A stretch of DNA of 10,308 nt from a virus. A model generated the notes under the pieces. It made no database searches, was not told where the DNA came from, and saw nothing but the letters and a program-made list of their open reading frames with translations. Shown here in pieces: positions 1 to 10,308 of this stretch. The stretch is from the UHGV virus genome UHGV-0120054. One strand, 5' to 3'. The position numbers and the translations under genes are program-made. The first letter of the stretch is position 1. The number at the start of each line of letters is the position of its first letter.

Positions 1-1
1 A

Positions 2-121
2 AGCCCAGGACTTACAGCAGATGCTGAACTCAATTATTACCGTCTACGAAGTGGAATCGACAGGATAACCGCGCAGGTTAACTACCTGCAGGAGTACATC
101 AGGACGCAATGCCTGAAATAA
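2..121 (+). CDS. 3' end of an upstream gene (partial, function unknown)
   Basis: Frame 2 is open from the window edge to TAA at 119-121 (…SPGLTADAELNYYRLRSGIDRITAQVNYLQEYIRTQCLK*). A second open frame overlaps it and ends at 66-68. Two intrinsic terminators follow. No family recognised. Confidence 0.3.
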   Translation, partial: SPGLTADAELNYYRLRSGIDRITAQVNYLQEYIRTQCLK

Positions 122-152
122 TTTTTTTGCAAATCACAAAGTCCATTTAATG

Positions 153-176
153 AGCCTCGCGATGCGGGGCTTTTTG
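153..176 (+). terminator. Rho-independent terminator (first of a tandem pair)
   Basis: GC-rich hairpin GCCTCGC-GATG-CGGGGC at 154-170, 6-7 bp stem with one G-U pair, followed directly by TTTTT at 171-175. Confidence 0.6.
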
Positions 177-182
177 CAATAA

Positions 183-207
183 ATGCGTACCGCAACGCAT
201 GTTTTTT
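183..207 (+). terminator. Rho-independent terminator (second of a tandem pair)
   Basis: Perfect 6-bp stem ATGCGT/ACGCAT at 183-188 and 195-200 with a 6-nt loop, followed by GTTTTTT at 201-207. Confidence 0.6.
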
Positions 208-322
208 ACACCGAACCTGCCCCTTTGGAATGGGCCTTTGAGGATACCAGTTAGTGCTGGCGAGCCTCGGTGGGCTGGTTTCCTGTGCGGCAAAGGTTCA
301 TTTCAAAGAGTAGGTACACGCT

Positions 323-820
323 ATGAAATCATTAACCCTCTTCAATCAACCAATTCGTATCGGTGAAGATGGCATGATCTGCCTCACTGATATGTGGAAA
401 GCCAGTGGTAAAAGTGAATCTGAATCGCCTTACCACTACCTGCGAAACAAGCAGACCAAAGAGTTCTTAGCCGAGCTGGAGAAAAACCACGAATCTGTGG
501 TTTTTACTGAGCGCGGTGTACACGGTGGAACATATGGCGGGAAGTTTGTTGCTTACGATTATGCGGCTTGGTTAAACCCCGGGTTCAAGTACGCGGCCTA
601 TAAAGTCCTCGATGACTACTTCACCGGAGAACTTCAGCATCGCAACAGCTTAAGTGCGCAGCTCAACATGAAATGTCATGAGTTTGACCAGAAGAAAGAC
701 ATGGCGAGCTTCTGCGGACAAGGGCTGGCAGCATGGCGCTATACGAAGCCAGTGTTGGTCGCTGAGATTAACTCCCTGGCTAACCAGTTGCAGATTACGA
801 TCCCCGGGCTTCCGGGATGA
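323..820 (+). CDS. KilA-N domain protein (possible antirepressor or DNA-binding regulator)
   Basis: 165-aa ORF. The N-terminal ~100 aa carry the KilA-N signature (LFNQPIRI…DGMICLTDMWKASGK…GTYGGKFVAYDYAAWLNPGFKYAAYKVLDDYF). Weak SD (AGGT) 7 nt upstream of the ATG. Confidence 0.8.
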   Translation: MKSLTLFNQPIRIGEDGMICLTDMWKASGKSESESPYHYLRNKQTKEFLAELEKNHESVVFTERGVHGGTYGGKFVAYDYAAWLNPGFKYAAYKVLDDYFTGELQHRNSLSAQLNMKCHEFDQKKDMASFCGQGLAAWRYTKPVLVAEINSLANQLQITIPGLPG

Positions 821-1074
821 GTGATCGTGTCATTGAATGCGCCTCCAGAGCGGGGCGTGACTTCTCAGAGTTCATGAAAGGTGAGAAGGGCATGATGGAA
901 GCATTGGCCTCGGTGGATGAGTTTGGCGAGCAGCTGCGCCTCAACGGCTGTGTCAATCATCACTTTGTTAGCTACATGATGCGGAACTCGATCATGCAGG
1001 CATTCATGGACATGGCAAAAGCCGAGAGGAAAGAAGAGCGCCGGCGTAAGCGAGCGGAAGCAAAAGCGAAGTAG
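817..1074 (+). CDS. hypothetical small protein with a strongly basic C-terminal tail, co-translated with the KilA-N gene
   Basis: 85-aa ORF whose ATG (817) overlaps the KilA-N stop (ATGA at 817-820). C-terminus is AKAERKEERRRKRAEAKAK. No family recognised. Confidence 0.5.
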   Translation: MSDRVIECASRAGRDFSEFMKGEKGMMEALASVDEFGEQLRLNGCVNHHFVSYMMRNSIMQAFMDMAKAERKEERRRKRAEAKAK

Positions 1075-1436
1075 CCATTACAAAGCCCATCTACGGGTGG
1101 GCTTGATAATGAAACCGGAGTTAATTTCTGGTCACTAATTAACGGCAGTACAGCGAAACAACCCAAGCCAGAAAGTGGGGAAATAACACTGGCAGCCACT
1201 GAAAGATGAACCTCCTGCCTGATGGCAAAAAAGATTCTTTGTGGTGGCGGACTGATGGAAAGACATCGGTTATTGCAGAGACCATTCAATGAGTGGTCTC
1301 GACAATGGCTTATACCCTACACGGGATAACTTAACTGATATCCCCACAAGCGGATAAAGAGATTCTCAATGTCAGGAATCTACTTTTAGTCCTAGTAATG
1401 ATGAACTAGATATCAGTTGAGTCGCTTGGGTGGTGA

Positions 1437-1673
1437 TTACGATTCTGCTTCAAACTCAGAAATTAGTTGATGAACACGTTCAGTATATGATGGGTTAGAA
1501 CCTAGAAACTCTTCCACTGTCTGAATGGTTTCATCACCCTCCCATTCAAAATGGCTCACAGGCGACGAATGACCAGCCCTGACTTGGTAGGAGCCATTGT
1601 CCAATTTGTCCAGGAATATATAAGTTTCATTATCATGAACTGTATTTCGGTAAAAAATTTGCTTTGAGTTCAT
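1437..1673 (-). CDS. hypothetical small acidic protein (moron, antisense to the late operon)
   Basis: 78-aa ORF on the minus strand with a good SD on that strand (AGAGGA, 8 nt before the ATG). Sits in a low-GC patch (about 25-45% GC in 60-bp blocks, against roughly 55% in the structural genes). Protein is net acidic. No family recognised. Confidence 0.55.
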   Translation of the reverse strand: MNSKQIFYRNTVHDNETYIFLDKLDNGSYQVRAGHSSPVSHFEWEGDETIQTVEEFLGSNPSYTERVHQLISEFEAES

Positions 1674-1697
1674 TAAAGAAATCCTCTAGAGAAAACT

Positions 1698-2249
1698 ATG
1701 GCACTCACCGACAAGCAAGAAATGTTCTGTCGCGAGTACCTCATCGATTTAAACGCCACGCAAGCGGCTATTCGGGCGGGGTACAGCGCAAAGACAGCTA
1801 ACCGTACCGCATCCGAAAACCTGTCAAAACCTGACATCAAGTTAAGAATCGCCGAACTGAAAGCGCAACGCAATGATCTTATTGGTATTAATGCAGAATA
1901 TGTACTTAATCGCCTTATTGAAATCGACCAGATGGATGTGCTCGACATTCTCCTGCAAAACGGTGAGCTAAAGCCCATTAAAGACTGGCCTAAGGTATGG
2001 CGCACAACGCTATCAGGAATGGATGTCGTGGAGATGGTATCCGCAGATAGCGCCGCACTTCTGAAGAAAATCAAATGGCCTGATAAGGTTAAAAACCTTG
2101 AGTTGCTTGGGCGTCATGTTTCTGTTCAGGCGTTTAAAGACAATGTCAAAAATGAAGTGACTGGTGCTGACGGAGGACCAGTCAGAACAGAAATTACCAA
2201 CTTAACGCCGGAGCAGGCTGCAGAGGCGTATAGAAAAATGATGGGCTAA
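1698..2249 (+). CDS. phage terminase small subunit (Terminase_2-like)
   Basis: 183-aa ORF. N-terminus [34 protein letters not shown]… matches the conserved HTH-like signature of this terminase small-subunit family. Lies immediately upstream of the large subunit. Confidence 0.8.
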
Positions 2250-2251
2250 GT

Positions 2252-3874
2252 ATGCCGTTACCATTCCCCTTCGATTTTAAACATCCTGATTACCAGATGG
2301 TTTTTGAATGGCGGATGGAACGCCTACAACGCATTCGCCAGAATCCTGAAATATTGCCTGCACTAAAACAGTTTTACCGAACCAATCCGGCTCAGTTCAT
2401 CATCGACTGGGGCATGACAACGGACCCGCGTAATATTGATTATGGCCTGCCGGTGACCATTCCGTTTTTACTCTTCCCTAAGCAGGAGGAGTGGATCCAC
2501 TGGATTATGGAACGCTGGAGTAATCGGGAGAATGGTATTACCGAAAAATCCCGTGAAATGGGGCTCAGTTGGACCGCGATCGGGCTGGCCTGCTCGCTTT
2601 GTCTCTTCAACAAAGAAATGGTTATCGGTTTCGGCTCCCGTAAAGAGGAATACGTCGACAGCACCGGTGACCCGAAGGCGCTGTTCTGGAAGGCGCGCAA
2701 GTTCGTGGAAACACTACCTGTAGAGTTTCGCGGTTCGTGGAGCGAGAAGAAGCACGCGCCATATATGCGTGTTGAGTTTCCTGAAACTGGTGCCGTTATC
2801 AAAGGCGAGGCTGGCGATAATATTGGTCGTGGTGACCGTACCACGCTTTATCTGGTTGATGAGGCTGCATTCCTTCAGCGTCCTCTGCTGATTGATGCGG
2901 CGTTGTCACAAACGACGCGTTGCCGTATCGACCTGAGTTCGGTTAACGGCATGGCGAACCCGTTCGCGCAGAAGCGTCACGGCGGGAAGATACCGGTATT
3001 CACATTCCACTGGCGGGATGATCCTCGCAAGGATGAAGAGTGGTATCGCAGGGAATGCGAGAAAATCGATAATCCGGTGGTGGTGGCACAGGAACTTGAT
3101 CTGAACTACAGCGCATCAGCGGAAGGCGTCCTGATTCCATCCGAATGGGTACAGGCTGCCGTTGATGCGCATATCAAACTGGGTATCCAGCCAACAGGCA
3201 AACGACTTGGCGCGATGGATGTCGCCGACGAAGGCAGGGACAAAAATGCCTTTTCCACCCGTCATGGCTTCCTCCTGGAGAATGTGCGGGAATGGTCCGG
3301 GGTGGGCAGCGACATTTATCAGTCCGTCGAGAAGGTCTTCGGCTTTTGCGAACAGGACAATCTTGATGAGTTTCGCTTTGACGAGGACGGGCTGGGCGCT
3401 GGCGTTCGCGGCGATGCACGCGCTATCAACGAACTGCGTAACGCTGCGCGCCGACCGTCAATACTCGCTACACCGTTTCGAGGTAGTGGCGCGGTATTTG
3501 ATCCGGATGATGAAGCTGTTCGCGGGGACAACGGGCAAGCCGCACGTCTGAACAAGGACTTCTTCGCTAACGCCAAAGCCCAGAGCTGGTGGCGGTTACG
3601 TAAACTTTTTCAGAATACCTGGCGCGCCGTGGTTGAAGGTATGGCTTACAACCCAGACGAAATCATCTCAATCAGCAGTAGCATGGCACTCAAAGATAAA
3701 CTCATCATCGAGCTTTCGCAGCCGACCTATTCCATTAATGGTGTGGGAAAAATCGTTATTGATAAACAGCCTGATGGAACCCGATCACCAAACCTTGCTG
3801 ACTCGGTGATGATCAACTATGCCCCAATGAATTCAGCCCTGAACATCTGGGAGCTGCTAGGGAGACAGGCCTGA
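2252..3874 (+). CDS. phage terminase large subunit (ATPase plus nuclease)
   Basis: 540-aa ORF. Deviant P-loop KSREMGLS (lambda gpA-like K-S-x-R-x-G-x-S, recalled from memory). Walker [12 protein letters not shown]-terminal RNase-H-like nuclease motifs [25 protein letters not shown] and [10 protein letters not shown]. Confidence 0.85.
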
Positions 3875-4392
3875 TGGCACGAAACAAGCAATCCTCTCAG
3901 CGAACGGCACAGGCCACCGCTGACGGCTACGAGAACTTCGTCGCCCGCGTTGGGATGAGCTCATTGCAGGAGCGCCGCTTACGGCTGCCGATGCGCCGGA
4001 TACTGGACATTATGCACCGCTCGGAACTCGGTAAGCCGCTGCCGGACGATTTCACGTTTGAGTTTAACCCGCTATGGCAAATGTCTGACGTTGACCGCTC
4101 AACGGTGGCCGTAAACACCACCAACGCGATCAGCACCGCGCTGGGCGACGGATTGATGACGCGTAAGGCGGCGATGACCGACCTGCGAGAAAACTCTGAC
4201 GTCACCGGCATCGGGGCATCCATTACCGACGAGGACGTAGAGAATGCCGAAGACGAAGCGCCGCCAGGCATCGGCGAACTTGGCGACAAACCGCCAGAGT
4301 CGCCAGGCGGAGATCCGATATCGAACGAGCCTACGGCAGATAGCGCGGGCGGTCGGGGATATCGTAAATGGGCGCTACGATGGTTCAAATGA
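3874..4392 (+). CDS. hypothetical protein in the position expected for the portal gene; possibly a portal remnant
   Basis: 172-aa ORF. ATG overlaps the terminase stop (TGATG at 3872-3876). Acidic C-terminal region (TDEDVENAEDEAPPG). Far too short for a portal (typically over 400 aa). The last 149 nt overlap the next gene in another frame, where that gene's frame has the higher third-position GC. Confidence 0.4.
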   Translation: MARNKQSSQRTAQATADGYENFVARVGMSSLQERRLRLPMRRILDIMHRSELGKPLPDDFTFEFNPLWQMSDVDRSTVAVNTTNAISTALGDGLMTRKAAMTDLRENSDVTGIGASITDEDVENAEDEAPPGIGELGDKPPESPGGDPISNEPTADSAGGRGYRKWALRWFK

Positions 4393-5017
4393 TAGCGTTA
4401 CCGAAATAATGGATGCGCTGGAGCGCTACAGCGAAATCATCACCCCCTGGGCGACGAAGGTTGCTGAGAACTTTACCGCCGACATTGCACGCCAGAATGA
4501 AAAGCAGTGGCGTCAGCACAGCCGGAACATCAGCGCAGAGCTGCGCAACATGGTCGACCGCGCCCCGGTAGGCCAGGTGATGAAATCCATCGTCGCCGAG
4601 CAAATTAAGTACATCAAGTCACTGCCTCTTGAGGCCGCCGATCGGGTGTATGACATTCAGAACAAGGCCATCGAGGCCGTTGTGTCTGGTGGCCGCGCTG
4701 AACCATTCGCGAAAGAGATAGCAGCGTCCGGTGACGTGTCACGCTCACGAGCGAACCTTATCGCCCGTACCGAGCTTGGACGTGCAACCGGCGCGCTGGA
4801 TCAGGCGCGTGCGCTGTCAATCGGCTCGAATGGTTATATCTGGCGTACAGCCGAAGATGGCGACGTCCGGCATTCTCATCGGGAGATGGAAGGTAAGTTT
4901 GTCGAATGGGGCAAACCTCCAACGCTTGATGGCATGACCGGTCACGCTGGCGAGCTCCCGAATTGTCGCTGTTATAAAGAAATCGTTTTTCCCAACCCTC
5001 ATTCTTATCTCGCCTGA
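4244..5017 (+). CDS. phage head morphogenesis protein, Mu F / SPP1 gp7 family
   Basis: 257-aa ORF. Hallmark C-terminal motifs LIARTELGRA … WRTAEDGDVRHSHREMEG … PNCRCY. SD GAGGA at 4231-4235, 8 nt before the ATG. The frame opens only one codon upstream (TAG 4238-4240). Alternative downstream start at 4409. Confidence 0.8.
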   Translation: MPKTKRRQASANLATNRQSRQAEIRYRTSLRQIARAVGDIVNGRYDGSNDSVTEIMDALERYSEIITPWATKVAENFTADIARQNEKQWRQHSRNISAELRNMVDRAPVGQVMKSIVAEQIKYIKSLPLEAADRVYDIQNKAIEAVVSGGRAEPFAKEIAASGDVSRSRANLIARTELGRATGALDQARALSIGSNGYIWRTAEDGDVRHSHREMEGKFVEWGKPPTLDGMTGHAGELPNCRCYKEIVFPNPHSYLA

Positions 5018-5031
5018 ATCGCAGGTAAACC

Positions 5032-6252
5032 ATGAAATATTTTTTCAATACCCGGCTGGGGGAAACCCGCTATCAGCTGGCTGACGGCTCGCTGCTGTGC
5101 AAAGACGTGCCGATAGGTCGAACGGGTAAGCAGCTCTACGGCGCTGCCGATCTGCCAAACCTCAAACCCGACAAGCTCGGTGAGATAGTCGTAACGCGTT
5201 CTCCTGAGCAGGTATTCCATCCGGCCACGCTCGCCTCATTCGAAGGGATGAGCATCACGATCCTGCATCCTGAAGATGAAAACGGGAATGTGCGGCTGGT
5301 AAATCCCGAGAACTGGAAAGAGCTTGCTGTCGGGCATCTTCAGAATGTGCGGCGCGGGACGGGTGACCAGTCTGATTTGATGCTGGCTGACCTTATCGTC
5401 AAAGACGAAAACGCCATTCAGCTTATCGAAGATGGCCTGCGTGAAGTGTCGTGCGGCTATGACGCGGAGTACGAGCAGACCGAGCCAGGTAAAGCCGAGC
5501 AGGTCGATATTACCGGAAACCATGTGGCTCTTGTCCCCAAAGGCAGAGCCGGAAATCGTTGTGCAATTGGAGACAGAGACACAATGGCAAATCAAAAGAA
5601 AAACTGGTGGAACCGCATGCGTGCAGCCATCAAGACAGGAGATGCCGACACCATGAACGAACTGGTGGAGTCGGCTCCCGCATCGGTTACAGGAGATGAG
5701 GGGGATTTGCCGCAGGGCGTTAATCTCAACATCAACCTGTCCCCGCAGCAACCACTACCGGACAAAGCACCAGAGATGGGTGGAGGTCCAACCGGCGACA
5801 GTGATGATGACCTCAAAACATTACTGAAAGCCCTGCTGGCTAAGCTGGAAGGAAATGCGACGGGCGATAACGACAATAATCCTGACGATAATCCGACCGG
5901 TGACGGCGAGGACTATGAAGAGGAAACCACGATTACTGGTGACTCAGCCTGGCGTGCCGAAGTTATCGTTCCGGGTATCGATCTGAGCCGTAAGATGAAA
6001 CCGACCGCGTTCAAACGCGAGGTTCTGGCTTCTGCTGACAAAACGCTGGTTCGCCAGATAGTCGGTGATGCGGATATCCGCAAATTACCGAAACAATCGG
6101 TCAACATGGCGTTTAATGCCGTGTCAGAGATTGCCAAAGGGCGAAACACCCGTACCACCATGGGCGATGCACAACGCCAAAATATGGGCATGACCAGCAT
6201 CGCTTCCCTGAACAAACAAAACGCCGAATTCTGGTCTAACCGCAAAGGATAA
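5032..6252 (+). CDS. putative head scaffold or maturation protein (DUF2213-like)
   Basis: 406-aa ORF directly after the MuF gene. Conserved N-terminal half followed by a long acidic low-complexity segment (GDSDDDLK…GDNDNNPDDNPTGDGEDYEEE). Family assignment is from memory of MuF/DUF2213/capsid head modules. Confidence 0.55.
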   Translation: MKYFFNTRLGETRYQLADGSLLCKDVPIGRTGKQLYGAADLPNLKPDKLGEIVVTRSPEQVFHPATLASFEGMSITILHPEDENGNVRLVNPENWKELAVGHLQNVRRGTGDQSDLMLADLIVKDENAIQLIEDGLREVSCGYDAEYEQTEPGKAEQVDITGNHVALVPKGRAGNRCAIGDRDTMANQKKNWWNRMRAAIKTGDADTMNELVESAPASVTGDEGDLPQGVNLNINLSPQQPLPDKAPEMGGGPTGDSDDDLKTLLKALLAKLEGNATGDNDNNPDDNPTGDGEDYEEETTITGDSAWRAEVIVPGIDLSRKMKPTAFKREVLASADKTLVRQIVGDADIRKLPKQSVNMAFNAVSEIAKGRNTRTTMGDAQRQNMGMTSIASLNKQNAEFWSNRKG

Positions 6253-6256
6253 TCCA

Positions 6257-6760
6257 ATGACTGCATATCTGTACCGGATGCCTGTTGGCATTGCCGGGGC
6301 TGTCTCTCGCCCGCAGGACTTAACCGTCGAACCGGTGGTCCTTAAATCCGATAACGCCTTCGCTGCCTATGGGCTGGCTGGTAAATACGATGCTGACGGT
6401 TTTTTCGTACCGCTGGCAGATGGTGATACCGCAGACAAGGTGAAGGGGATCTACGTGCGCCCTTATCCGACCACGTCGCAGCCGGACATGGTTCGCCAGG
6501 TGGGGAGTGGCAAGAACTTCCCGGGAGACGCCATGAAGCGTGGCTACGTGACCGTTAATCTCGGTTCTGATTTTGATGCCAGCACCATCAAAAAAGGCGA
6601 CCCGGTATACGTTGTCGTCTCCGCTGATGAATCCATCAAAGTGCCGCTGGGTGGATTCATGTCCACGTCAGTCAGTGGCAAAAATGTGGTGCTGACCAAC
6701 GCTGAATTCACAGGTGCCGGTGATGCTAACGGCAATGCAGAAATTTCCTGGAAGATTTAA
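6257..6760 (+). CDS. putative small head structural or decoration protein
   Basis: 167-aa ORF with SD AGGA, lying between the scaffold-like gene and the capsid gene. Gly/Val-rich, beta-rich-looking sequence. Confidence 0.45.
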   Translation: MTAYLYRMPVGIAGAVSRPQDLTVEPVVLKSDNAFAAYGLAGKYDADGFFVPLADGDTADKVKGIYVRPYPTTSQPDMVRQVGSGKNFPGDAMKRGYVTVNLGSDFDASTIKKGDPVYVVVSADESIKVPLGGFMSTSVSGKNVVLTNAEFTGAGDANGNAEISWKI

Positions 6761-6771
6761 GGAACAGACGA

Positions 6772-7584
6772 ATGATTACTTTTGATCAGGCAACCGTTGA
6801 CAGCTCTGGTGCCTTTCTCATCGGGGAGCTGGAGCGACTCGACCAGACGCTGAACCTGCCACTGGTGGGGTACACCTGGACCCGCGATATTCAGTTGCGT
6901 GAAGATGTCTCCATCGCAGATGACATTTCCAGCTGGACGAATACCAGCTTCGCCGCTGCGGGTACTGGCGCAAATCCGAATGGCAAAAACTGGGTAGGCA
7001 AAGACTCAACCGCTATTGCTGGCGTGAACGTGGATATCGGCAAATCCGGTAACCCGCTGAACCTGTGGGGGATGGAGCTTGGCTGGACGGTCATAGAATT
7101 GCAGGCTGCTCAGCAGGTCGGACGCCCGATTGATACGCAGAAGTATGACGGGATGCAACTGAAATGGCAGATGGATAACGATGAACAGGTGTATGTTGGC
7201 GATTCCGCATTAAACCTGAAAGGCCTTGTTACCCTGAACGGTGTTCCTGTCAACAACGCTGCCAAAACGTGGGCAACCTCAACACCGGACGAAATCCGCG
7301 CAAGCATTAACCAGGTGCTGTCTGATGCGTGGGCCGCTTCCGGTTACTCTGTGGTTCCGCGTGATTTGCTGATCCCACCTGAGCAGTTTGCTCTGTTGTC
7401 CAGCATCATCGTTTCATCTGCGGGTAACCAGTCCCTGTTGACGTACCTTCAGACCAACACCATCAGCTATCACCAGAACGGTGTTCCGCTGAATATCCGC
7501 GCGGTTAAATGGCTGAAAGGCCGTGGTGTGGGGAATAAGGATCGCATGGTTGCGTACACCAACGATAAAAAATACGTCCGCTAA
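6772..7584 (+). CDS. major capsid protein (DUF2184-like)
   Basis: 270-aa ORF with a strong SD (AAGGAA). Position after the scaffold and small head protein genes is that of a major capsid gene. Sequence is consistent with capsid proteins of this head-module type, recalled from memory. Confidence 0.6.
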   Translation: MITFDQATVDSSGAFLIGELERLDQTLNLPLVGYTWTRDIQLREDVSIADDISSWTNTSFAAAGTGANPNGKNWVGKDSTAIAGVNVDIGKSGNPLNLWGMELGWTVIELQAAQQVGRPIDTQKYDGMQLKWQMDNDEQVYVGDSALNLKGLVTLNGVPVNNAAKTWATSTPDEIRASINQVLSDAWAASGYSVVPRDLLIPPEQFALLSSIIVSSAGNQSLLTYLQTNTISYHQNGVPLNIRAVKWLKGRGVGNKDRMVAYTNDKKYVR

Positions 7585-8456
7585 CCGGTACGGCAGGCAC
7601 GACTATCTCGAATGGTTCTGCACGGGATAAAAACGGCATTATCTGGAATTTTCCAGCGAGTGTAGCGATCGGCGTTGATGGTACTGTGCTGGTGACGGCC
7701 ACATGTGCGAATAGCGGTTCGGTTGCGGCGCTGGCCGGGACTATTACCACTATCAACACCCCGACCCGAGGTTGGGTGTCGGTAACCAATCCTGCTGCAG
7801 CCACTGTGGGCACTCCGGCAGAAACTGATGCGGAGTTACGTATCCGCCAGTCGCAAAGTGTTGCGTTGCCATCAATAACCCCATTTGAAGCACTGGATGG
7901 TGCTGTTTCTAATGTTACCGGTGTAACCCGCCACAAACTCTATGAAAACGATACTGGTTCGGAGGACGGTAACGGGTTACCGCCACACTCTGTTGCTGTA
8001 ATTGTGGATGGCGGTGATGTGACGGATATTGCTCAGGCTATCAGAGGAAATAAAGGCCAGGGGACAGCCACTCACGGTACAACATCCGTTACGGTTCCGG
8101 ATAAATACGGCAATCCCCATGTAATCAAATTCTCGCGTTCCAGTGATGTGCCTGTTTATGCCCGGATTAAATTAAAAGTTTTTACGGGTTATACCTCACA
8201 GATAGGGCAGCAGATCCAGCAGGCTATTTCCGACTATATCAATAGTCTGACGATTGGTGATTCGGTCCTTTTAAGTCGCATTTACTCACCGGCGAATCTT
8301 GGCGTGGTGAGTGGCGGGAATGCACGCTATTACGATATTCAGGAACTGACGATTGGGAAATCCCCGGGGGCTTTGTCGTCATCAAACATTGATATCAGAT
8401 ACAACGAATCTGCGTCCTGTACCCCGGAAAATATCGTTATAACGGTGGAGTCATGA
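7569..8456 (+). pseudogene. baseplate J-like (gp47 / P2 gpJ family) gene, 5'-truncated
   Basis: Open frame of 296 codons starting inside the end of the capsid gene and containing no ATG at all. First possible start is GTG at 7686 with no convincing SD. Conserved J-family motif AETDAELRIRQSQS. No sheath, tube, tape-measure or other baseplate genes lie between capsid and this frame. Confidence 0.7.
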
Positions 8457-9133
8457 GCAAATACACCGAACTAATCACGAACTACCACGTCACCAAACCT
8501 AAATTTCTTGCACATGTTGATCTGATGACCCGGCCGCTTATTGATGTTGCGGCTGCCACCAGAGGGCTGATTACTGCATTTGATATTGACTCTGCGGTTG
8601 GTGTGCAACTTGACATTCTGGGATTGTGGATCGGGCGTAGCCGTGTTGTCAGCCAGCCTATCTCAGGTGTCTATTTCAGCTGGGATACCGACGGGCTTGG
8701 ATATGATCAGGGGGTATGGCAGGGGCCATATGATCCTGATTCCGGATACATGTATCTCAGCGATGAAACTTATCGTGTCATTCTTAAAGCGAAGATTGCG
8801 ATTAATAACTGGGACGGACGGAATGATTCGCTTCCAGCAATTCTTGACGCTGCAACAGCAGGATCCGGGCTGCGAATGCAGATAGTCGATAACCAGGACA
8901 TGACGATATCGGTCTGGGTCTTTCCTGATACTGATATTTCAGATGTATCGCGTGAGTTAATTGCGGCAATTAAACAGGGGTATCTCACAGTAAAAGCCGC
9001 CGGGGTGTGGGCAGGTGGCATTGAAACACCTTCGGTGGAAACCCCATCGGAAGGCTCAAATTTTTTTGGTTTTGATATGGATAATGAATTCATCAGTGGT
9101 TTTGATGTAGGAGCATGGGGAGTATTACTCTGA
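8453..9133 (+). CDS. gpI-like baseplate or tail protein (DUF2612-like)
   Basis: 226-aa ORF. ATG overlaps the J-like stop (ATGA at 8453-8456). Position between baseplate J and the tail fibre matches P2 gpI / Mu gp48 / e14 YmfQ-type proteins. Confidence 0.55.
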
Positions 9134-9933
9134 TGGCGAAAAATGACTTTAAAGCGTTTGCAACGGATCGAAATGCCAATGTTATGTCGCAGGAGGAATG
9201 GGAAGCGTTGCCTGCGCTTTTATCCGGATTTACAGCAGGGAAAGCATCCAGTGCGCAAGTCAATAAGGTTATTCGGCAGGCCAGCTTTATTACTGCAGCT
9301 CTGGCCCAGTTTGTAAGTGACAAAACGCAACGGGATGTGCTTGATAATGGTGATCTGCCCGGTTTTGTTGAATTGCTGGGATCGGGGTTTGCTGTTGAAT
9401 ACCTGAGTCGCAAGAATCCGTTTGGCGATATCAAATCGGATGGCACGGTGAAAACGGCTCTCGAAAACCTTGGTTTGGGAGAAGGCTCTGCATTACCTGT
9501 TGGTGTGCCTGTTCCATGGCCTTCAGCCACACCGCCAACAGGCTGGCTGAAATGCAACGGTGCGGCTTTTTCTTCTGAAAAGTACCCAAATCTGGCAAAG
9601 GTTTACCCAACGTTAAAATTACCTGATTTACGCGGTGAGTTTATCCGTGGTTGGGATGATGGGCGAGGTGTGGATGCGGGAAGGGTCATCTTAAGCATAC
9701 AGGGGTGGTTAACAGGAAGTCATTATCATAATATTCGGTCATGGGACGCGTGGGATAACACGGTATTGGTGCCAAATGACAGAGGGGGGGATAGTCTGTT
9801 GTCTACAGATAACGCCGTCCAAGAAGGAGCGATTAATGGTAAATTTACCAGTCAATACAGAACGGAGTTTTCAGGGGGAAATGAAACCCGCCCACGTAAC
9901 ATCGCCTTCAATTATATTGTGAGAGCTGCATAA
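9133..9933 (+). CDS. tail fibre protein with a C-terminal phage tail-collar domain
   Basis: Open frame runs from ATG 9115, but ATG 9133 is the better start: it overlaps the upstream stop (TGATG) and has GGGGAG 10 nt upstream. Tail-collar signature [33 protein letters not shown]…[17 protein letters not shown]. Confidence 0.8.
9458..9483. other. Gin/Hin/Cin/Pin-type serine-invertase crossover site inside the tail-fibre gene
   Basis: CTCTCGAAAACC-TT-GGTTTGGGAGAA: an imperfect dyad with the AAACC-NN-GGTTT core. Matches hixL/gixL-type sites at about 10 of 12 positions per half-site (consensus quoted from memory). Falls at tail-fibre codons ~109-117 (ALENLGLGE). Confidence 0.6.
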
Positions 9934-10308
9934 TGAATAACGCGATATTAAATAATGACCTTATTGCCGTACAGGCGGGAAACGTCATCGTTTATAACTA
10001 TGATGGTGAGACGCGGGAATATATTTCCGAATCAACTGAATATCTTGCTGTGGGTGTTGGTATTCCGGCATGTTCCTGTTTAGAGGCTCCTGGTACACAT
10101 AAGGATGGTTATTCAATTTGCCGCTCTGTGGATTTAAATTCATGGGAATATGTGCCGGACCATCGCGGTGAAATTGTCTTTAGCACCGAAACAGGAGAAT
10201 CAAAAGAAATCACAGCACCGGGTGATTACCCTGATAATACAACCACTCTCGCACCGTTAACGCCATACGATAAATGGGATGGTGAGAAATGGGTGACAGA
10301 TACTGAGA
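9933..10308 (+). CDS. tail fibre assembly protein (Tfa, Caudo_TAP family), 3'-partial
   Basis: ATG at 9933 overlaps the tail-fibre stop (TAATG). The frame is open for 125 codons to the window end, so it is absent from the ORF track. Tfa-like motifs DHRGEIVF and KWDGEKWV. Confidence 0.8.
   Translation, partial: MNNAILNNDLIAVQAGNVIVYNYDGETREYISESTEYLAVGVGIPACSCLEAPGTHKDGYSICRSVDLNSWEYVPDHRGEIVFSTETGESKEITAPGDYPDNTTTLAPLTPYDKWDGEKWVTDTE

Follow-up and report, generated by a model that had tools for sequence, protein, structure and literature searches.

The 26-bp sequence CTCTCGAAAACCTTGGTTTGGGAGAA at positions 9458-9483 of the viral contig UHGV-0120054 (10,308 nucleotides, analysed as a whole and called the window here) is probably the left crossover site of an invertible tail-fibre module of the e14 P-segment type, i.e. 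of the class that is flipped by the Hin/Gin/Cin/Pin ('Din') serine invertases. The source genome is likely to have retained the partner site, as judged from related loci; that its own invertase is intact is somewhat doubtful, given the condition of this gene in the relatives. In the prophage at hand the fibre module is likely a relic or an exapted element and not a working host-range switch.

In the Hin/Gin family, invertase dimers bind two inverted 26-bp sites and form a complex with an enhancer to which Fis is bound. The DNA is cut at the 2-bp core, rotated by 180 degrees and religated. Hallmarks of such systems are a second, inverted site with the same core about 1-4 kb away, a serine recombinase of about 184 amino acids (Resolvase plus HTH_7) and, towards the 5' end of the gene for this enzyme, a recombinational enhancer that depends on Fis.

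The crossover site and the fibre gene

The 26-mer is on the plus strand. It consists of two 12-bp imperfect inverted arms, CTCTCGAAAACC on the left and GGTTTGGGAGAA on the right, which enclose the 2-bp core TT at 9470-9471. The left arm agrees with the reverse complement of the right arm, TTCTCCCAAACC, at 9 of 12 positions. The window contains a single AAACC-NN-GGTTT dyad core, where dinucleotide-preserving shuffles lead one to expect 0.03; five of 200 shuffled sequences had one. A further copy of the 26-mer was absent from the window, which ends 825 bp past the site, on either strand and with up to 8 of 26 mismatches permitted.

The site lies in frame within a fibre gene (9133-9933, plus strand, 266 amino acids). 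It codes for ALENLGLGE, residues 109-117, and the core TT falls within the CTT codon of Leu113. The fibre probably starts with the ATG at 9133 and not at 9115, where the mechanically derived open reading frame of 272 amino acids begins, because this ATG overlaps with the stop codon of the DUF2612 gene as ATGA and because the gene calls in relatives and in the source record agree with it. The constant 5' part of the gene, Sc, runs from codon 1 to codon 113, where the crossover core lies (9133-9471, plus strand), and would stay the same in either orientation. Up to the core it is 99.7% identical to loci L003-L011 and 94-99% identical to relatives of the invertible type. The variable 3' part, Sv, comprises codons 114-266 and the stop codon (9472-9933, plus strand) and is the part that would be exchanged on inversion. 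It carries the tail-collar domain, C-terminal of the site (Pfam Collar, E=1.3e-14, residues 130-177 of the 272-residue frame, equivalent to about 124-171 of the 266-residue protein). The fibre stop codon overlaps as TAATG with the start, at 9933, of a TfaE-like tail-fibre assembly gene (Pfam Caudo_TAP). Its 5' 125 codons are in the window (9933-10308, plus strand) and the gene runs past the contig end; in relatives tfa has about 200 codons and is located within the invertible segment.

The window is an entire metagenome contig (ENA ERZ651857 NODE_2904, 4.62x coverage). Since it ends inside tfa, a partner site, a second tfa, an alternative fibre end and an invertase gene are out of view. The place to which the preliminary description had assigned them, directly past the window, has no counterpart in the source sequence. 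Within the window the preliminary description held up well. It had proposed a 26-bp site with the AAACC-NN-GGTTT core, and this is present on the plus strand. It had placed the site inside the fibre frame, between the N-terminal part and the collar domain and followed by tfa, and open reading frames and Pfam assignments gave exactly this order. The architecture invoked from the Mu G, P1 C and e14 P segments, Sc, site, Sv and tfa, is seen as well.

A look-up of the exact fibre protein with the 9133 start matched the window alone, and that with the 9115 start had no match. For Sv plus tfa, megablast returned nothing above 93% in complete E. coli genomes, plasmids and phages. The best DNA relatives of Sv are the e14-like loci L014/L015 with 93% and L172 with 94.5% identity; the closest protein is 96% identical. 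Exact-word scans of IMG/VR for the window junction and Sv yielded alleles of 88-89% at best, and a 40-mer that is specific to this contig (9780-9819) was without match in JGI metagenomes or IMG/VR. Window 9785-9823 is the only stretch of Sv plus tfa with 20-mers missing from all fetched loci; it holds a run of seven G residues, and at 4.6x coverage a sequencing error is possible.

Identity with the e14 site and likeness to other switches

The site had been described as a crossover site of the Gin/Hin/Cin/Pin type. This can be put more precisely: going by its sequence, window 9458-9483 is the Pin site of e14 itself. All 26 positions are identical to a sequence in stfP (ycfK) of the cryptic prophage e14 in E. 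coli K-12 MG1655 (locus L016, 4779-4804). According to annotated records, the P1 cix sites agree at 20 of 26 positions and likewise have TT as core; for the Mu gix sites the agreement is 18 of 26. The e14 partner, TTCTCCCAAACCAACGTTTATGAAAA, is inverted, lies 1,827 bp downstream of the left site and 54 nt before pinE. Both e14 sites have a common inner arm and core, with TT in the same sense. Experiments showed that PinE, PinQ and PinR invert the e14 P segment, whose flanking inverted repeats were given as TTGGTTTGGGAGAAGG and CCTTCTCCCAAACCAA (2025; PMC12529663). The former is identical to window 9470-9485. In MG1655 cultures whole-genome sequencing detected the two orientations side by side, confirmed by PCR (PMC4272514). 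Inversion is equally evident from pairwise comparisons. Between the e14 locus of K-12 (L016) and L082, a contig from IMG/VR, the flanks are 100% identical; so is the interior of 1,825 bp, but in inverted orientation. L082 and L140 give the same picture. Between K-12 e14 and L014/L015 the flanks are collinear and the interior is inverted, with the switch at both sites.

The e14 P segment (stfP/tfaP - tfaE/stfE - pinE) thus has the same left site as the window, in frame in a fibre gene and followed by a variable end and tfa. In the e14-like loci L014/L015 the module of Sv and a tfaE-like gene is 93% identical to that of the window at the DNA level. The partner sequence in the closest relatives of the window is that of e14 and lies 54-55 nt upstream of pin. 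Unlike e14, the window element belongs to a prophage family with a DUF2612 wedge/baseplate-J, myovirus-type tail module, and partner site and pin are absent from the contig, which ends first. The Mu G segment (gix/Gin) and the P1 C segment (cix/Cin) use the same switch logic, i.e. Sc, site, Sv plus tfa (U), together with a serine invertase and a second set in inverted orientation. Their segments are larger (3.0 kb in Mu and 4.2 kb in P1 against about 1.8 kb in the e14 type) and their fibre proteins differ.

Phage HK97 served as a non-invertible control. Its stf/tfa pair has a homologous collar-type fibre end plus tfa, and stf contains the site-like sequence CTCGCACAAACCTTGGTTTGGGAGAA at the same position of the gene. 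It agrees at 23 of 26 positions; the core is intact and all three changes are in the left arm, whereas the window copy is the unmutated e14 site. Downstream of HK97 stf follow att and int; neither a partner site nor an invertase, and hence no inversion system, was found there. HK97 demonstrates that the 26-bp sequence can survive as plain coding sequence. The record NC_041848.1 ('Escherichia phage P2', locus L169) had been the initial candidate for this control. It was dropped in favour of HK97 because it has an invertase and a pair of sites of its own. This record, which derives from O157:H43 T22, carries a fibre segment of the invertible kind, complete with an invertase gene; the sites at 3500-3525 and 5361-5386, TTCTCGCATACCTTGGTTTGGGAGAA and TTCTCCCAAACCAAGGTATGCGAGAA, are perfectly inverted.

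How often the site has a partner

The exact 26-mer was present in at least 120 IMG/VR contigs and in eight stretches of species-representative genomes, mostly from E. coli/Shigella. One copy (L144, 155-180) comes from a contig of 5.8 kb that goes by the label 'MAG: Bacillota bacterium'; this contig is probably a piece of an enterobacterial prophage which was assigned to the MAG by mis-binning. To obtain a base rate, 55 non-redundant loci with the exact 26-mer and at least 3.5 kb of downstream sequence each were taken from among the matches listed. An inverted partner half-site was found in 44 of these 55 loci (80%, among the matches listed). A collar-type Sv in expressed orientation, as in the window, was present in 38 loci among the matches listed. 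In this subset, again among the matches listed, 32 of 38 (84%) had the partner site; 19 had a full-length pin gene, 13 a truncated or partial one, and five had neither partner nor pin.

Eleven of the 55 loci among the matches listed were without partner, and ten of these were also without pin; the eleventh, L095, kept a full-length pin. Six partnerless loci (L047, L055, L056, L075, L120 and L136) have a collar-type Sv, a tfaE-like gene and, as the sole minus-strand remainder, a stub of tfa. They are decayed segments, frozen in one orientation. Other partnerless loci have unrelated long fibre ends. The objection that the motif is simply conserved coding sequence for an ALENLGLG-type stretch in non-invertible fibres thus has precedents in nature: such fibres occur in HK97 and in about 20% of the exact-site loci, among the matches listed.

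The closest relatives carry the full segment

A protein search identified the closest fibres with 96%, 93% and 92% amino acid identity. At the DNA level, L172 and L173 from E. coli isolates are 94.5% and L176 from a metagenome is 93.8% identical to window 7669-10307 in unbroken alignments. In all three the left site is identical to that of the window and a canonical partner is situated 1,839 or 1,820 bp downstream. They contain a tfa of 200 codons and a pin gene, and on the minus strand a further tfa and a Gp53-like fibre end are present. Thus, every closest-fibre locus of sufficient extent (three of three) has the partner; L174 and L175 stop too early. In total, inverted partners 1.8-1.9 kb away were observed in L001, L002, L014-L016, L172, L173 and L176. 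Phage vB_EcoM-606R2 and the prophage of O103:H2 strain 12009, which sits beside yfhH/tadA, have the same layout with a full invertible segment. The O103:H2 12009 family, vB_EcoM-606R2 and L172/L173/L176 share with the window the gene order baseplate-J, DUF2612, fibre, tfa, 94-97% nucleotide identity over window 7669-10307 and an identical left site. Within the prophage family of the window the interiors were mostly inverted in 21 locus pairs and in the same orientation in 53.

In the nearest relatives pin is damaged, with frameshifts in L002, L172, L173 and L176. L002 and L176 have a common 1-nt deletion (alignment column 300), and in L172 a run of A residues has independently gained 1 nt (column 338). 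The inactivated genes are at 9005-9558 in L002, 4160-4713 in L176 and 12245-12800 in L172. Consequently, these segments can invert only if another prophage provides a Pin-type enzyme in trans. Inversion of e14 by the enzyme of another prophage does happen (PMC12529663). Nucleotides 19-90 of the relatives' pin genes are identical at 55-57 of 72 positions to the enhancer annotated in P1 cin. Because this stretch is coding sequence, the similarity is no independent evidence for an enhancer.

We propose the following for the source locus. Inversion would flip about 1.8 kb, with the exchange in the Leu113 codon. In the state captured by the window, collar/TfaE-on, which is the flip of the K-12 reference, the N-terminus of 113 residues is joined to the collar-type C-terminus with its TfaE-like chaperone gene. 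In the other state the same N-terminus would be joined to a Gp53-like C-terminus, which has its own tfa on the opposite strand. A local invertase, if there is one, may be dead, in which case inversion would require a Pin-type enzyme that another prophage provides in trans.

A mosaic junction upstream of the core

Upstream of the site the window follows the L008-type prophage. It is identical to L008 from 1 to 9443 and from 9445 to 9471, with 9444 as the sole mismatch, and diverges fully thereafter. Loci L003-L012 are 99.9-100% identical to the window up to 9471. They possess a left half-site only, CTCTCGAAAACC TT CAATTGCGAGAG (e.g. L005 11006-11031). Their fibre of 364 amino acids is non-invertible and is followed by an acyltransferase and host genes; some members are intact. 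A tfa gene, a pin gene and a reciprocal half-site were all absent from the L003-L012 loci. The similarity of L003-L012 to fibres of the invertible type fades at the core; after the core, 7 of 12 bases still match between the window and the L003 type. Since the fibre end of these near-identical relatives is different and non-invertible, the module in the window was probably grafted in.

Two sets of diagnostic bases confine the junction. At 9292 and 9408 the window has the L008 base, where all fibres of the invertible type that were compared differ. At 9444, a position that precedes the core by 27 bp, it has the base of the invertible type, where L003-L012 differ. The bases at 9408 and 9444 put the mosaic junction in the interval 9409-9444, i.e. 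27-62 bp upstream of the core, with L008-type sequence upstream and invertible-type fibre from 9444 onward. This fits a homologous exchange within Sc; a chimeric assembly join is less likely. We also considered whether the window is simply a flipped L008/L010 locus. This was rejected because an inversion regenerates the full left 26-mer and the right arm of L003-L011 differs from it; the absence of tfa, pin and a reciprocal half-site from L003-L011 likewise speaks against it. A separate observation concerns the ends of L008-L011 (11098-11300): these independent assemblies stop 80-280 nt past the half-site, inside the fibre gene, which suggests a repeat or a graph branch at this point.

The prophage is defective

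Compared with its intact relative L171, the window lacks 944 bp of the portal gene (DUF1073) at 3952-3957. A second deletion, at 7582-7587, joins the 3' region of a truncated major-capsid gene to baseplate J, close to codon 144, and takes out all intervening genes, including those for sheath, tube and tape-measure protein. Both deletions are real, because they are the same in two independent assemblies, L008 and L010. Thus portal, capsid and baseplate-J genes are truncated. Unlike the O103:H2 12009 family, the window element has no tail genes and lacks parts of portal, capsid and baseplate-J, and upstream of 9444 it represents the L003/L008 sub-lineage, in which the fibre is non-invertible. 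Judged by its gene content, it is a defective, deletion-riddled prophage, unable to build a tail. It had been predicted that flipping of the fibre end swaps receptor specificity. Without sheath, tube and tape-measure genes no tail is possible, and host-range switching is no live function of a virion in this element.

Alternative explanations

The main competitor of an invertible segment is a frozen site. Partner and invertase may have been deleted or never transferred, the segment would be stuck in its collar/TfaE state, and the 26-mer would by now be no more than coding sequence for ALENLGLGE. There are precedents: the 11 of 55 partnerless exact-site loci among the matches listed, ten of them also without pin; the decayed segments of L047, L055, L056, L075, L120 and L136; and HK97 stf with its 23/26 copy and no inversion system. 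Moreover, L003-L012 are without any inversion machinery and the window element itself is decaying by deletions. Yet the partner is kept in 80-84% of the exact-site loci among the matches listed and in three of three closest-fibre loci, and the left arm of the window site is unmutated, unlike that of HK97. On balance we regard a frozen site as unlikely, and an invertible segment of the e14 type remains the preferred reading.

Two further possibilities concern the origin of the junction. The contig may be an assembly chimera, in which an L008-type prophage was joined via Sc to the fibre-tfa module of another prophage, possibly from an intact invertible element. The metagenome assembly with its 4.6x coverage, the contig end inside tfa, the L008 identity over 9,443 bp with the change of type inside 9409-9444 and the multi-copy nature of Sv/tfa-like sequence, which many E. 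coli genomes carry at several places (14 at most), are all compatible with such a join. However, if the donor resembles the 11 fibres of the invertible type compared, the stretch in which both types agree exactly measures no more than about 35 nt (9409-9443), which is shorter than the usual final k-mers of assemblers, and fibre genes are often naturally mosaic at precisely this module boundary. A chimera is therefore quite improbable. Alternatively, Pin itself may have made the graft, using the L003-type half-site as a secondary site for recombination with a full site in another prophage. The similarity between window and L003-L011 stops at the core TT, and homology to many unrelated fibre genes begins inside the site, which favours such an event. 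A graft exactly at the core was nevertheless downgraded, because the bases at 9408 and 9444 put the junction upstream, the invertible-type base at 9444 being 27 bp before the core. In addition, the L003-type loci have no reciprocal half-site, and with 7 of 12 matching bases after the core the break is not razor-sharp. We consider this reading very improbable. An e14-type module acquired by homologous exchange within Sc accounts best for the junction.

Implications

The site is base for base that of e14, probably in a further copy of an already known textbook phase-variation switch, and beyond correct annotation the significance is small. For annotation the numbers are instructive. Among the matches listed, the 26-mer alone goes with a complete invertible segment in about 80% and with a full-length adjacent invertase in about half of the cases. 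Because of this limited predictive value, annotation pipelines should demand the partner site. Metagenome contigs tend to stop inside multi-copy invertible fibre modules.

A further possibility is that the intact site survives in this tail-less prophage because the fibre module has been exapted. Pin-type invertases from other prophages would act on it in trans and thereby switch between fibre fragments at the cell surface that keep lytic phages from adsorbing. Fibre-based block of adsorption was reportedly seen recently with StfE2 of e14, for phage T2. We consider exaptation of this kind very improbable for the present locus. If it were true, the graft of the module onto an L008-type relic would have been selected and would not be accidental. 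In any case, fibre modules with intact sites last in heavily decayed prophages, and this bears on the recent proposal that fibre inversion in cryptic prophages serves anti-phage defence.
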